64,000 nt of DNA from Negativicutes bacterium. GTDB taxonomy: Bacteria; Bacillota; Negativicutes; UBA1444. Below are positions 48,192 through 53,834 of this stretch, piece by piece. Where the stretch lies: the NCBI GenBank assembly GCA_963665275.2, contig CAXXIN010000014.1:96001-160000 (forward strand), written 5' to 3'. A program made the position numbers and the translations under genes. The notes beneath the pieces were generated by a model. The model saw only the letters and a program-made list of their open reading frames with translations, ran no database searches and was not told where the DNA came from. Within the stretch, counting starts at the first letter, position 1. Each line of letters begins with the position of its first letter.

Positions 48192-49332
48192 AACTGCCGA
48201 CGTAGTGGTAGTCGGCGGCGGGATCGTCGGCTGCTCCACTGCCTATAACCTGGCTCGCCTTGGGGCAGGGAAAGTAGTTTTGGTTGAGCGAGGTTATTTA
48301 GCCAGCGGCTCTACCGGTCGGTGCGGCGCTGGCATGCGAATGCAGTGGGGCACTGAAACCAATTGCCTGTTGTCGCGCGAAAGCACGAAATTGCTGGAAA
48401 ACTTGCCTGAAATTCTCGAAGTCGATACCGACATTGAACTGAAACAGGGCGGCTATCTGCTCTTGGCCTACACGGAGAAAATGGCGGCCCAGTTCAAAAA
48501 AAACCTGATCTTGCAAAACTCACTCGATATTCCTGCTCGCTGGGTGACTCCTGCGGAAGCGAAAGAGATTGTGCCGCATCTCAATACGAATGGCATGATC
48601 GGCGCGACTTTTTGTCCCAAGGACGGACACTGCAATCCGTTCAAGGCGACGGAAGCCTATGCTAAGGCCGCCCGCCGCCTGGGTGTGGAAATCCTGACCC
48701 ACACGGAAGTGACCGGTATCGAATCGGAATGTTGCCAGATACGCACGGTGAAGACAACGGCGGGTGATATTCACACGCCGCGGATGGTAGTCGCGGCCGG
48801 TGGATACACCAAAGGCCTTGGTCGAATGGTGGGCGCCGAGATTCCAATTTACCCGGAGCGGCATGAAATATTGGTGACAGAGCCAGTAGAACCAATGCAG
48901 GAATCGATGGTAATGAGTTTTCACCATAATCTTTATTGTCAGCAGAGTCCCCACGGCAGTTTCATCATGGGAATTGGTCATCCCGATCTGCCGGAGAGTT
49001 TTGACACCCGGTCGAGCTGGCAGTTTCTGCAGGAGATGGCGACACGCCTGATCACCATATTGCCGGCGCTGGCGGGCTTAAATGTCGTTCGGCAATGGGC
49101 GGGCCTTTATGATATGTCCCCTGACCGGCAGCCGATCCTCGGACCGGCCGGTGATGTGGAAGGTTTCCATGTGGCAGCAGGGTTCAGCGGCCACGGCTTC
49201 ATGATCTCGCCGATTACCGGCCAGATCGTGGCCGAGCAGCTGCTGGGGCTGCCGACCGCATTGCCGGTGGGAATGCTGGACGCCGGACGTTTTCAGCGCG
49301 GCGATTTGTTCATCGAACCCTCGGTTGTCTAA
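48184..49332 (+). CDS. FAD-dependent amino-acid dehydrogenase beta subunit (dye-linked L-proline dehydrogenase-like)
   Basis: GGGIVG, GSTGRCGAG, RQWAG and GFSGHGFM motifs; ATG after GGAGG. Confidence 0.85.
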   Translation: MNRTADVVVVGGGIVGCSTAYNLARLGAGKVVLVERGYLASGSTGRCGAGMRMQWGTETNCLLSRESTKLLENLPEILEVDTDIELKQGGYLLLAYTEKMAAQFKKNLILQNSLDIPARWVTPAEAKEIVPHLNTNGMIGATFCPKDGHCNPFKATEAYAKAARRLGVEILTHTEVTGIESECCQIRTVKTTAGDIHTPRMVVAAGGYTKGLGRMVGAEIPIYPERHEILVTEPVEPMQESMVMSFHHNLYCQQSPHGSFIMGIGHPDLPESFDTRSSWQFLQEMATRLITILPALAGLNVVRQWAGLYDMSPDRQPILGPAGDVEGFHVAAGFSGHGFMISPITGQIVAEQLLGLPTALPVGMLDAGRFQRGDLFIEPSVV

Positions 49333-49400
49333 AGACACCGCCAAATATGCAAAAATAAAATTTGAGACCAGCTATGAAAAGTCAACAGGTGCGACTGAAT

Positions 49401-50582
49401 TTAGCGTGCCAACATCGGATCATAGGCTTGACCAGATTTGAGAAGAGCAAAAATGGTATAAAGCAACTTGCGAGAAACCGCGCCCAGAGCAACACGATGG
49501 GCTTTGCCCTCTTCGCGTTTCTTATGATAAAACGCAGCAAAGACCGGATTGAATTTAGAAGCGGGGAACGCTGCTAACCAAACGGCTCTGCGCAGATACG
49601 GCGAGCCCCGTTTGGACATATGGCTTTGGCTGCCGGTGAATTCGCCGGACTGCTTTATTGAAGGATCCATCCCAGCAAAGGCAACCAATTTCTCAGGAGC
49701 GGAAAAACGATGAACATCGCCAATCTCACTGAGGATGGCTGCTGCCAAGACTTTGCCGATACCGGGAACCGTATGCAACGTGCAAGAAAAGCGGTCATAG
49801 TAGGCACTGATTTGTTCGCCAAGCTCAGCCAATTGCTCTTCCAGAAACACAATCTGAGCCACCAGCTGGCGCAATTGAAAGGCCAGGGCGTCTATCCCCA
49901 ATTTGACTCCAAACGAATGCTTTGCGGCATTCTGAATCCGTTGAGCTTGATCTAGGCCGAAGCGGCCACGGCTGGTTCGTTCAAGCAAGCCAGCTAACTT
50001 CCCAGAATCCACCGCTAAAAACTCCTCCGGAGTGGAAAACTCCGCCAGCATCTGGCGGGAAGAGGCTCCGAACAGATCAGAAAATAGGGACTCATATTCC
50101 GGAAACACTTGATCCAAGAGGGCGATTACCTTGCGTTTGAGATCGGATATATTATCTACCAGTGAGAAACGATAGCGGCAAAGTTGACGCAACGCAATTA
50201 AATCGGGTTCGGCCAGGGTGGTTTGCGTAAACCGACCGAAGCGAATGACCTCAGCGATGAGAAAGGAATCGACTGCATCCGTTTTAGTCTGGCGAATGTA
50301 CAGATTGCGAAGGCTGTCGGACTGAATGGGATTGATCACATGGACGACATGGCCATCCTGTATCAGCCGGGAATAAAGGGGCAGCCAGTAATGACCGGTT
50401 GCTTCCATGCCGAACACAACAGGCAGCAAAGTGGGATTGAGTTTTTGAACCTGCTTGAACAAAAGCTCAACTCCGGCGAGAGAATTGGGGAACGAAAATG
50501 GTTTTCCCAGCAAACCGCCTGATTCATTCATCAGACAGGCCTCATGACTGCGCTTGGCGATGTCGATGCCGACGATGATCAT
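49401..50582 (-). CDS. IS110 DEDD recombinase/transposase
   Basis: GIDIAK, GMEATG, KTDAVD (DEDD), PGIG, QSG serine motif and KRGSPYLR; ATG after GGAGG. Confidence 0.95.
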   Translation of the reverse strand: MIIVGIDIAKRSHEACLMNESGGLLGKPFSFPNSLAGVELLFKQVQKLNPTLLPVVFGMEATGHYWLPLYSRLIQDGHVVHVINPIQSDSLRNLYIRQTKTDAVDSFLIAEVIRFGRFTQTTLAEPDLIALRQLCRYRFSLVDNISDLKRKVIALLDQVFPEYESLFSDLFGASSRQMLAEFSTPEEFLAVDSGKLAGLLERTSRGRFGLDQAQRIQNAAKHSFGVKLGIDALAFQLRQLVAQIVFLEEQLAELGEQISAYYDRFSCTLHTVPGIGKVLAAAILSEIGDVHRFSAPEKLVAFAGMDPSIKQSGEFTGSQSHMSKRGSPYLRRAVWLAAFPASKFNPVFAAFYHKKREEGKAHRVALGAVSRKLLYTIFALLKSGQAYDPMLAR

Positions 50583-50599
50583 GTGCGCACCTCCCTTTG

Positions 50600-50835
50600 G
50601 GACAGATAACCTCCAGCAGCTGCGGCACACAACCTCGTGAGACATGCGAAGTACCAGTCGTACCGGCCAACATCCAGCTCATTCGTGATGGACCGCAGGG
50701 CCAGAGGGATCACTCTCAATTTCGAGGTTCAACCTCAAGGAGGAAGACGATCTCCTCTGTCCTCTGCTATTAGTATCTCCGATTGTTCCTCGGGAGACAA
50801 GCGGAGAGGTTCAACAGGTTTCCCTGTTTATCCCG
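50600..50835 (-). ncRNA. Putative IS110 bridge RNA (ends approximate)
   Basis: Non-coding end downstream of the junction -10 box contains segments matching target and donor sites in LTG-RTG-LDG-RDG order. Confidence 0.7.
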
Positions 50836-50864
50836 AACATAATTATACGAGGAGGAAGCTCATC

Positions 50865-52412
50865 ATGTTAACAGAGTATCGCAACGAACCGTTTACGAAT
50901 TTCTCCATTCCCGAAAACAAGGCTGCCATGGAAGCGGCGCTGTCCTTGGTAGCGTCGCAGAAGGGCAGACATTATCCCCTGAAAATCGGTGGCGTTGCCA
51001 TCGATACGGAAGCGAAGATCACTTCGGTCAATCCCTCTTATATCGAGGAAGTGGTCGGCACCGTGGCCCGCGCCAACATTGAGTTGGCGGACAAAGCTGT
51101 AAAAGCGGCCGCCGACGCCTTTAAAACGTGGAAATTCATTGAGCCGGAAACCCGCGCTCGACTGATTTTCAAAGCGGCTGCCATTCTGCGCCGCCGCAAG
51201 TTCGAGTACTCCGCCTGGTTGGTGGAGGAAGCCGGCAAGAACTGGGCCGAAGCGGACGCCGATACGGCGGAAGCCATCGACTTCATGGAATATTATGGCC
51301 GCGAAATGCTGCGTTATGCCGCAGGGATGACTGTGACATCCTACCCCGGAGAGCAGAATGAATGCGTCTATATTCCGTTGGGCGTGGGCGTGGTCATTCC
51401 GCCCTGGAACTTCCCTCTGGCAATCCTGGCAGGGATGACCGCGGCGGCTGTGGTTGCAGGCAACACCGTCATCATGAAGCCGGCCAGCAGCACACCGGTT
51501 ATTGCGGCCAAACTGATGGAGCTGTTTGAAGAGGCCGGTGTTCCTGCCGGCGTTATCAACTATCTGCCTGGCAGTGGCGGCAGCATCGGCGACGCGCTGG
51601 TGTCCCATCCCCAGGTACGGTTTATCAACTTCACCGGTTCCAGGGATGTCGGCCTGCGGATCAATAAATTGGCTGCAGACGTAGTGCCGGGACAGATCTG
51701 GATCAAACGGGTGATCGCTGAAATGGGCGGCAAGGATGCGATCATCGTGGATGATGAGGCTGATCTCGAAGAAGCGGCGACCGGCATTGTAACGTCGGCC
51801 TTCGGTTTCCAGGGGCAGAAGTGCTCGGCCTGCTCGCGCGCGATTGTCGTAAAAAGCGTTTACGATGAACTGGTAGCGAAAGTTGTGGCCAAAACAAAAG
51901 CGCTGAAAGTCGGACCGGCAGCCGAATTTGGCGTAAACATGGGTCCGGTGGTGGATGAAAGCGCTTACAAGAAAGTGCTGGATTATATTGAAATCGGCAA
52001 AGGCGAAGCCCGTCTGGTCGCAGGCGGCAACAAAGCGGGCGACAAGGGCTGGTTCATCGAACCGACGGTATTCGCTGACGCGCCTGCCACTTCCCGCATC
52101 GCACAGGAAGAAATCTTCGGGCCGTTCGTAGCCATCATTCCGGCTGCTGATTTTTCCGAAGCTCTCGACATCGCCAATGGCACCGAATATGGTCTGACCG
52201 GCGCCGTATTTTCCAAGAACCGTGCCAAGTTGGAGCGGGCACGCCGCGAATTCCACGTCGGCAATCTTTATCTTAACCGCAAATGCACAGGGGCATTGGT
52301 CGGCGTGCAGCCCTTTGGCGGCTTCAACATGTCAGGCACCGACTCCAAAGCTGGTGGCGCCGACTATATGCTGCTTTTCATGCAGGCCAAATCGGTTGCG
52401 GAAAAACTCTAA
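50865..52412 (+). CDS. rocA: L-glutamate gamma-semialdehyde (P5C) dehydrogenase
   Basis: YRNEP, PWNFP, FTGS, EMGGK, GQKCSAC, EEIFGP and QPFGGF motifs; ATG after GGAGG. Confidence 0.92.
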
Positions 52413-52476: not shown

Positions 52477-53834
52477 TGATATGCTCCCTTCAAGGTAGAC
52501 AGATGAAATAAAAAAACATTGGTATGCCACCCATTAAGTAGACAAGGGAAATAGTTAAATTGAACAGTAATGCATTTCAAACTGCCTTGGGGACTTGTAT
52601 CCCAAGGCAGAATGTCTTCTCTGCCTATTGTAGAATATTTCTATATACTCAAACACTGCCTTCTTGGCGATTTCTCGATTAGCGAACATTCCCATCCCTC
52701 GCATTAACTCGGTTTTTAATGTCTTATGGAAAGCCTCAGCAACAGCATTATCATAAGGATTTCCGGGCCTGCTCATGCTGGCGATTAAGCCATGTTTGCT
52801 GAGCAAGTCCTTATATTTTTTGCCCATGAATTGCGATCCCCGATCCGTATGGACCACCAGGCCAGGCATTGGACTTTCTGCCCAGACTGCCGCTTGAATT
52901 GCGGTGAGTGCCAATTGTTCTCTCATTTGTTTATCCATGGACCATCCTATAACTTTTCGGGTGTAAACATCCAAATACACCATCAGGTAAAGAAATCCTT
53001 CTCTAGTTTTTATATATGTAATATCTCCAACCCAAATTTTATTCTTATCCTCTGCCCTAAAGTATTGCCCAAGGATGTTTTCACTAGCAAGGGCCCCTGT
53101 GCTTTTCCGGTAAACCCCATGCTTCTTTCTCGGATATTCTGCAGTGAAGCCCAATTCTCTCATACGTAGAACAATCCGTTTATGATTTACCTTCCGTCCG
53201 CGCGATTCTAGCTCCGCCTTAATCCTTCGATAACCATAACGTTTCTTGTACTGAAAATAGATTTCCGTGATTTCCTCGTTGAGTACTTCGTTCTCTATGG
53301 CGCGCCGACTTTTCCTTGCATGAATGAATTTGTAGTAGCCAGCGCGAGAGACTTTCAGCACGCTGCACATGAGTTTTGTGCTAAAGTGCTTTGAGTGTTG
53401 CTTAATGAACTCGAATTTCTTGTGTTTGAATGTGTTTATGCCTTGAGGAAGGCTTGAAACTTTTTTAGGATATCGCGTTCCTGCTCCAATTGTTCAATTC
53501 TTTTTTGAAGTGTGCGAATTTCGAACTCTGGATCTCTGATAGGATTGCCAGAGCCAGTGAAGGCCTGTTCGCCAGACGTTTCGTATTCCTTGACCCAACG
53601 AGCAACCATGTTTCGTGATAGTTCTAGAGCGCTTGCAACTGACGCAGAACTTTTGCCTTCCTCAAGTACTTGTTTTACAACTTGAACTTTAAATTCCCGG
53701 TTAAATTTCTTTCGAGACATAAAATCCCCCCCTTGTTAATCAGTTGTACGTTTTCACCATACTTCCTGTCTACCAAGAGGGGGTCATACCAAATTTTTCT
53801 TATTTCATTCGTCTACTTGACGGGGGGCAGTTCA
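52477..53834 (-). mobile_element. IS3-family insertion sequence with doubled terminal inverted repeats
   Basis: TG...CA ends; ATT duplication at 52474-52476 and 53835-53837; orfA/orfB inside. Confidence 0.88.
52555..53720 (-). CDS. IS3 transposase OrfA (53436-53720) / OrfB (DDE), joined by -1 frameshift
   Basis: OrfA HTH KFNREFK; OrfB WVGDITY, HTDRGSQF, DNAVAE; A-AAA-AAG slippery site at 53460-53466 on the minus strand. Confidence 0.92.

Follow-up and report, generated by a model that had tools for sequence, protein, structure and literature searches.

The sequence analysed here (hereafter, the window) is a stretch of 64,000 nucleotides (nt) from a Negativicutes bacterium (assembly GCA_963665275.2, contig CAXXIN010000014.1, positions 96,001 to 160,000 of the forward strand). 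Two of its genes, both read on the + strand, frame the region of interest: a gene for an FAD-dependent oxidoreductase ends at 49332 and a gene for an aldehyde dehydrogenase (rocA-like, hereafter rocA) starts at 50865. Between them lies an element of 1485 bp on the - strand, whose recombinase gene is antisense to the downstream gene. We conclude that 49364-50851 (-) is very probably an insertion sequence (IS) of the IS110 group that encodes an IS621-type bridge RNA in its left end, and that the target loop of this RNA matches a Shine-Dalgarno (SD) site. The features of the locus are given in Table 1.

The product of the recombinase gene matched the Pfam profiles PF01548 (DEDD_Tnp_IS110, E 6.8e-45, residues 4-161) and PF02371 (Transposase_20, E 4e-27, residues 269-353), and it scored 249.8 bits with the NCBIfam profile NF033542 ("IS110 family RNA-guided transposase"), for which the cut-off is 140. 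It also aligned to the transposases of IS621 (8wt6_A, E 1.1e-24) and ISCro4 (9t56, E 5e-24). The GID, EATG, KTDxVD and SG motifs, which we take to be the catalytic residues, are in register in these alignments. The protein nevertheless differs from that of IS621, since only two local stretches align and it has 393 aa against 328 aa in the solved chain. In IS110-group elements the left end is long and the right end short, whereas this arrangement is reversed in the IS1111 group (PMC11208160, PMC11187229). With 267 nt in the left end and 34 nt in the right end, the element therefore belongs to the former and not to the latter. Its ends (CGTATAAT... and ...AGCTGGT) show no inverted repeats by eye, and the insertion is simple, without a long target duplication.

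Table 1. Features of the IS110-group element and of its insertion site in the window.
Feature	Position	Strand	Basis or remark
Recombinase gene, IS110-family DEDD, 393 aa	49401..50582	-	Pfam, NCBIfam and structure-chain matches
Left end (LE), 267 nt, non-coding	50583..50849	-	Begins CGTATAAT, i.e., the right-donor sequence and the -10 box (50842-50847)
Right end (RE), 34 nt	49367..49400	-	Left-donor AGCTGG (49368-49373 on +) and -35 box TTGACT (49380-49385 on +)
Core dinucleotide CT (AG on +)	49365..49366	-	Right-end junction; GAG shared by the two sides of the empty-site joint
Right target half (RT), CAAATT on the element strand	49359..49364	-	Host DNA on the far side; flank comparison of three copies
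Core AG and left target half, SD AGGAGGAAG of the rocA-like gene	50850..50858	+	Gene ATG at 50865
Bridge RNA core, ~140 nt	50623..50762	-	RNAalifold on 50 distinct relatives; pair counts with controls
Helix 1	50749-50762 with 50699-50711	-	Relatives' alignment
Helix 2, 4-bp hairpin	50733-50736 with 50724-50727	-	Relatives' alignment; DNA hairpin GAGGT-TCA-ACCTC at 50724-50736
Helices 3 and 4	50685-50695 with 50623-50630	-	Enclose the left donor guide AGCUGG
Helix 5, hairpin	50663-50668 with 50651-50657	-	Relatives' alignment
Left target guide (LTG) CUUCCUCCU	50738..50746	-	5' side of the target-binding loop
Right target guide (RTG) AAAUUGAG, (AAA)UUGAG	50715..50722	-	3' side of the target-binding loop
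Left donor guide (LDG) AGCUGG	50674..50679	-	Equals right-end positions -9 to -4
Right donor guide (RDG) ACGAG	50634..50638	-	Reverse complement of the core and first 3 nt of the LE (CTCGT)

The genome (3.97 Mb in 20 contigs) carries three copies of the element at 100% identity. The alignment of the three loci gives a common block from about 49363 to 50855. All copies are placed directly 5' of an AGGAGG SD, 15 nt ahead of the ATG, and are antisense to the gene that starts there. A first-pass annotation, made from the sequence alone, had proposed to look for an insertion site shared by other copies, and there is one: the three flanks on the side of the left end read ...GAGGAGG(A/G)-N8-ATG (in full, GAGGAGGA-AGCTCATC-ATG, GAGGAGGG-AACGTATT-ATG and GAGGAGGA-TGAATAGT-ATG). 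The flanks on the side of the right end are unrelated (...AAATT, ...GAAAAT and ...GATAAG). The SD and its spacing to the start codon (AGGAGG, 8-9 nt, ATG) are intact at the insertions.

We compared positions 49150-51050 with public assembled contigs, the search covering contigs only. One contig from a freshwater metagenome (run X6) corresponds to the empty site: it joins 49363 to 50849, skipping 1485 nt, and GAG fits on either side of the joint. This contig has a depth of 6.6 and reads ...AAAATTT-GAG-GAGGAAGCTCATCATG; its 9 differences in 165 nt indicate that it comes from a relative. The same run provided two additional right-side flanks, and run X8 a fourth junction on the side of the SD (GAGGAGG-CGTATCAAC-ATG). 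In run X3 the element forms a contig of its own (1494 nt), with a word depth of 114 against 49-57 for the flanks. The loose ends of this contig connect to flanking DNA of copies 2 and 3, so the same three insertions are present in X3, which may stem from the source of the window or from a nearly identical strain. Taken together, the flanks of the copies and the empty site show that the 1485-bp element is inserted at a CT core (AG on +) and abuts the SD on its 5' side. The first-pass annotation had extended the element to 50858, which takes in 7 nt of the host SD flank; the true end is 50848, or 50851 if the shared GAG is counted.

The uninterrupted arrangement of the locus was studied in relatives of the host. 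We fetched 11 relatives' loci and searched them by BLAST with the first 200 nt of rocA; four of the 11 had no match and were left out. In all seven placed loci, which are of the same genus or family, the oxidoreductase gene and rocA are adjacent and separated by 30-45 nt. The uninterrupted rocA junction of the closest relative (82% identity) reads ...AAAAATGAGGAGGATTTTTATCATG, i.e., it has TGAGGAGG at this place. As far as can be judged from its sequence, the element in the window appears to be active, or to have been so recently.

In the definition of Durrant et al. (2024, PMC11208160), each loop of a bridge RNA has a 5' guide that repeats the top strand and a 3' guide that is complementary to this strand, and both guides cover the core. 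The short matches reported in the first-pass annotation are all present: AGGAGGAAG at 50850-50858 and again at 50738-50746, the hairpin at 50724-50736, CTCAA at 50715-50719, CCAGCT at 50674-50679 and 49368-49373, and CTCGT at 50634-50638. The guides follow each other along the element strand in the order LTG, RTG, LDG and RDG, with a CT core. This is the layout of the IS621 bridge RNA, as had been suggested, and it is borne out by the guide matches, the fold and the covariation described below. The LTG is identical to the left target and core at 9/9 positions in the window copy (copy 1), 7/9 in copy 2 and 8/9 in copy 3. The reverse complement of the RTG agrees with the RT, core excluded, at 5/6, 6/6 and 4/6 positions, respectively. 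The idea that the target loop matches an SD was thus confirmed, with all three genomic copies and one metagenomic junction at such sites. The LTG shares the CCUCCU anti-SD core, as seen by comparison with the 3' end of the 16S rRNA (...GGATCACCTCCTTTCT, three copies in the genome). The word AGGAGGAAG has only two matches on both strands of the window; the mean in shuffled sequences is 0.45, and 7 of 100 shuffles give at least two matches anywhere. The motif matches nonetheless exceed chance by far, given that flanks and ends covary with these four positions in the relatives.

To study this covariation we scanned one genome per species and obtained 148 relatives of the recombinase, of which we kept the best 80 (46-56% identity, mostly Clostridia and Bacilli). 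Among the 81 sequences made of these loci and the window, 17 lacked an LDG anchor detectable by regular expression, two lacked 90 nt upstream and 12 were identical duplicates, which left 50 distinct RNAs. RNAalifold predicted a structure in which 16 of 19 pairs show compensatory changes. We then counted pairs in a structure of five helices and 31 pairs. These are 31 of the 40 predicted pairs; the nine remaining ones, predicted from a sub-alignment between the LDG and RDG regions, were dropped because they are in the donor loop. In this structure 88.9% of the cells can pair, against 66.8% in shuffled alignments (none of the 500 shuffles reached 88.9%) and 43-48% after shifting the 3' partners by one to three columns. 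Across the 50 RNAs, 27 of the 31 pairs changed on both sides. Folding and covariation modelling, which the first-pass annotation had recommended, therefore show a two-loop fold kept in the 50 distinct relatives. The LE of the element alone folds with a z-score of -3.2. A minimum free energy fold of the whole LE from the single sequence was discarded, as it pairs parts of the guides with other segments, and the alignment-based structure was used for the architecture.

The guides were compared with the flanks after setting the junctions from donor features only: the reverse complement of the RDG and a -10-like box on the left, the LDG word and NCT on the right. Three loci had no left junction (L005, L079 and L080), and two with poor ones (L077 and L082, -10 score of 2) were excluded by the score threshold of 4. 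The seven positions of the left target, core excluded, matched the LTG at 4.76 positions on average, against 3.39 when pairs were permuted (46 distinct pairs). The six positions of the RT matched the RTG at 3.75 positions on average, against 1.87 (44 pairs). For both halves none of the 10,000 permutations was as high, and the same was found with one row per guide (34 and 32 rows). Closely related elements switch guide and flank together: L072 has the flank ACGGCTCC with the guide ACGGCUCC, and L076 has ATACTCC with AUACUCC; L061, L062 and L075 have GCCCCCT in both flank and guide, and L064 and L069 have GCGCCCT in both. On the donor side, the LDG and the right end covary in four states (AGCTGG, AGCCGG, AGTTAG and AGTTGG), and the RDG and the start of the left end in six. 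The right ends of the relatives all finish with GGTCT, and their RTG and RDG end in AG. On the evidence of these alignments, guides and fold appear to covary as expected of a bridge RNA, to a degree that excludes chance.

These data suggest how the element might insert. The LTG would pair with the strand reading AGGAGGAAG, as it has the sequence of the left target and the CT core. The RTG would be complementary to the CT core and CAA(TTT). Both target guides together would specify roughly AAATTG-AG-GAGGAAG, i.e., the SD and a few bases on each side, and the donor-binding loop, with the LDG AGCUGG and the RDG ACGAG, would match the two ends of the element. Recombination at the CT core would then put the element right before the SD, always in the same orientation and with the recombinase antisense, so that the gene would keep its SD and start codon but be severed from the upstream DNA. 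By analogy with the IS621 literature, the RNA would be made, bound by the recombinase and direct strand exchange.

A promoter for these products could arise by circularisation. When the RE and the LE are joined via one CT, they give TTGACT and TATAAT separated by 17 nt, as counted on the sequence, and both boxes are kept in the relatives. The circularised element would thereby carry a consensus promoter for the bridge RNA and the recombinase; the public contigs compared here showed no circle junction. Circle junctions of IS110-family elements are described as creating promoters (PMC11187229). The integrated copy at rocA has a hybrid of a similar kind at 50842-50871 (-), reading into the element, TTAACA-18-TATAAT with 11 of 12 matches. 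Its -10 box (TATAAT, 50842-50847) belongs to the element and its -35 box (TTAACA, 50866-50871) corresponds to codons 2-3 of rocA. With such a promoter the integrated copy might express the RNA and the recombinase without circularising. In the relatives, a TGnTATAAT-like box is conserved 10-15 nt ahead of helix 1; it is weaker in the window (GATACTAAT). A consensus scan of the + strand around 50800-50860 found no outward promoter towards rocA, the only candidate being a weak AAGACA-18-TAAAAT at 49332-49361.

Several observations weigh against the bridge-RNA reading, or at least reduce the strength of the evidence for it. Only four SD-side junctions of the exact element were available. The LDG matches 6 nt only, leaving the T and the core uncovered. 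The mismatches of copies 2 and 3 to the guides suggest that specificity is loose or that other factors contribute. Several subclades have A, G or C as the last LTG base (e.g., CCUCCA, CUCCG and CCUCCC) although the flank and right end still have CT, which suggests that the LTG does not pair with the second core position in these elements. The structure used in the pair counts was derived from the same alignment on which it was evaluated, and the permutation figures overstate independence, since the relatives are kin. Scanning 49000-51200 with Rfam 15 up to an E-value of 1 gave no bridge-RNA family, only a chance match to a long non-coding RNA (E 0.18). A survey of sequencing runs gave six RNA runs with small word shares (0.06-0.13); one RNA run (X15) contained two short pieces at 90-95% likeness, none of them on the left end, and is silent on expression.

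The target loop appears to designate a subset of SDs, and not SDs in general. The guides specify a 15-mer that reads AAATTGAGGAGGAAG in the direction of the gene. With matches required to keep the CT core, the genome has no free copy of it with 0-1 mismatch, 16 with two and 95 with three. The occupied sites have one, two (copy 2) and three (copy 3) mismatches to the ideal 15-mer. The first-pass annotation had described the target as abundant and as regenerated after insertion. The lack of free sites with 0-1 mismatch contradicts the first statement. As to the second, only the left target half and the core, i.e., the SD of the gene, remain beside the element, and the right target half is replaced by the left end. 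The loss of this half on insertion has been stated for the IS110 family (preprint 10.64898/2026.08.14.744561).

Insertion near gene starts is a recurrent trait of these elements. We found GGAG or GAGG at most 9 nt from the junction in 27 of the 48 distinct left flanks of the window element and its relatives, and 16 of these have a start codon 9-20 nt away that opens an open reading frame (ORF) of at least 50 codons. Five more flanks (AGGTGA, AGGTAA and AGGAAG) do likewise, so that 21 of the 48 insertions are 9-20 nt ahead of an ORF. A looser test of proximity to ORFs gave 22 of 47, against 16% (1473 of 9200) at random positions of the same loci. We tentatively propose that a large, mainly Bacillota lineage of IS110 elements kept an anti-SD-like LTG while the RTG drifts, so that all of it homes to the 5' edge of ribosome-binding sites, and that homing to gene starts is a selected lifestyle, which would link earlier observations on IS900 and IS901 to RNA guidance. 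If this is so, and we say it with equal reserve, insertion would always be antisense, would leave the host SD intact and would often occur inside operons, as between the oxidoreductase gene and rocA or between a nifH-like gene and that of a P-II protein. It is more speculative that the same guide pairs with the SDs of mRNAs in trans.

The selective part of this proposal has an alternative. The mechanism could be the same and the link to SDs incidental, the bridge RNA specifying one sequence of 14-15 nt that happens to contain AGGAGG, with no selection for SD homing. Copies would then lie in front of genes because most AGGAGG-containing sequences in a Bacillota genome are ribosome-binding sites. 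Indeed, the minimal word TGAGGAGG has 96 sites in the genome, 63 of which precede a start codon by 3-10 nt, so guides with that word would mostly meet SDs. Other subclades have targets that are clearly not SDs (TTTAACCT, GCCCCCT, GCGCCCT and ACCCCCT), which shows that the loop is freely reprogrammed. However, SD-like LTGs are found in 25 of the 50 distinct RNAs, in both halves of the recombinase tree and with at least 6-7 state changes, on a tree built with a quick method and with LTGs classed as SD or other by regular expression. In the SD-type subclades the CCUCC-type LTG persists while the RTG varies, and IS900 and IS901 have the same habit in a distant phylum. An incidental link is rather unlikely in our opinion. 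SD homing may have been selected, or it may have followed from the sequence that the guide happens to specify.

It is much less probable that the distribution reflects survival after broad insertion, without targeting, where only the copies harmlessly upstream of an intact SD persist. Selection does shape the intergenic distribution of IS in general (PMC2942039), and only 3-4 insertion sites of this element were seen. Yet, survival cannot explain why the flanks are identical to an internal segment of the element at 9/9, 8/9 and 7/9 positions, nor can it account for copies that all face the same way and join the host, to the base, at the same CT, or for guides that covary with flanks in the relatives. 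Finally, we give hardly any credit to the view that the internal AGGAGGAAG and the other short matches arose by chance or have another role (e.g., as the ribosome-binding site of a + strand ORF) while the target is recognised by protein alone. Polypurine words are indeed frequent, and a 58-aa ORF on the + strand (50597-50773) lies across this region, but the ORF is short, the two matches of the 9-mer in 64 kb are 112 nt apart, the four guide positions covary with flanks or ends over 50 relatives, and the helices are kept by compensatory changes.

Some relatives deserve separate mention. Five of them (L043, L044, L051, L054 and L059) have UUUAAC-type LTGs and insert at TTTAACCT straight after a GC-rich hairpin and a T-tract that resemble an intrinsic terminator. 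To judge by these motifs, the subclade would have another type of "functional site" as its target. Four copies in one Christensenellales metagenome-assembled genome (L022-L025) are surrounded by identical DNA that extends for at least 330 nt on the upstream side of the element and for ~130 nt on its downstream side, which indicates that the IS travels inside a larger repeat or that it hit one repeatedly. In L008 (2111-2140), the DNA after the right end reads CGTATAATAAG... and resembles the start of the left end of another IS110 element. Other subclades have left ends that start with TGTAT-type sequences, to which the RTG of L008 (AAUACAAG) is nearly complementary. This insertion may have occurred at the junction of a resident element.

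The bridge-RNA (or seekRNA) mechanism was published in 2024 (PMC11208160, PMC11187229). The present element resembles IS621 and ISCro4 in its recombinase family, in having the RNA in the long left end on the recombinase strand, in the two loops with LTG and RTG followed by LDG and RDG, and in the CT core. It differs from IS621 by its LDG of 6 nt that stops short of the core and by its natural target, which is an SD site. The targets of IS621 are associated with REP sequences. Two other elements of the IS110 group, CazIS110-1 of Caloranaerobacter azorensis and ISEc11 (seekRNA), also encode the RNA in the left end. They are experimentally active, and their circular intermediates join the ends to make a promoter (PMC11187229; 10.1101/2025.10.25.684509). 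The searched text of the preprint (10.1101/2025.10.25.684509) has no mention of ribosome-binding sites or "Shine" for their natural targets, and we compared these by description only.

The closest precedents for the target are older. IS900 and IS901 of Mycobacterium avium, also of the IS110 family, were reported to insert in an orientation-specific way at translation-initiation signals, and the target motif of IS900, CATGNNNNNNTCTCCTT, is the reverse complement of an SD and ATG (PMC8141618). The element described here shares the orientation-specific insertion beside an SD and start codon (in three of three copies and one metagenomic junction). Yet, IS900 and IS901 insert between the SD and the start codon, whereas here the crossover is 5' of the SD, which stays with the host gene. 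They also have an antisense ORF (hed) that borrows host signals, whereas the largest + strand ORF within the present element has 99 aa and no long hed-like ORF was found. Their host belongs to a different phylum. In the literature searched we found no bridge RNA tied to the target of IS900. The open literature likewise gave no bridge-RNA guide tied to an SD target, although Supplementary Data 2 of Durrant et al. and the source data of Fig. 8 of the seekRNA study may list such cases. The mechanism and the SD-type target are hence already known for related elements. What this element adds is the clean anti-SD-like guide, the empty site and the family-wide natural reprogramming with recurrent SD homing.

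The element thus offers a natural example of a target loop that encodes a biologically meaningful site: with an anti-SD-like guide it lands ahead of genes, in one orientation, and leaves the translation signal intact. It also explains, in terms of mechanism, why some members of the IS110 family were reported decades ago to target translation-initiation signals. The 50 distinct relatives make a comparative set for the natural reprogramming of all four guides. The suggestion that the element is a candidate programmable recombinase is plausible; for genome editing it would be one more orthologue among the thousands of a known family, and it brings no new principle.

The copies split operons, separating the oxidoreductase gene from rocA and a nifH-like gene from that of a P-II protein, and polar effects are possible. 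The latter case is copy 3 (contig C18; L003:1500-3329), which is inserted between a gene whose product ends with ...NQDRLEELMMAHGILG, by eye a nitrogenase iron protein NifH, and a gene encoding a 108-aa regulator of the P-II family (NCBIfam match of 1e-12, below the cut-off). With these neighbours the copy is apparently inside a nif operon, and a polar effect on the regulation of nitrogen fixation is possible. Copy 2 (contig C7; L002:1419-1505) is ahead of a 28-aa ORF with two CxxC pairs, which looks like a zinc ribbon by eye and has no family match; the gene upstream of this copy is patatin-like, also by eye. A second mobile element seems to be present nearby in the window: ~140 nt past rocA, a 271-aa ORF (52555-53370, -) looks by eye like the OrfB transposase (integrase core) of an IS3-family element.

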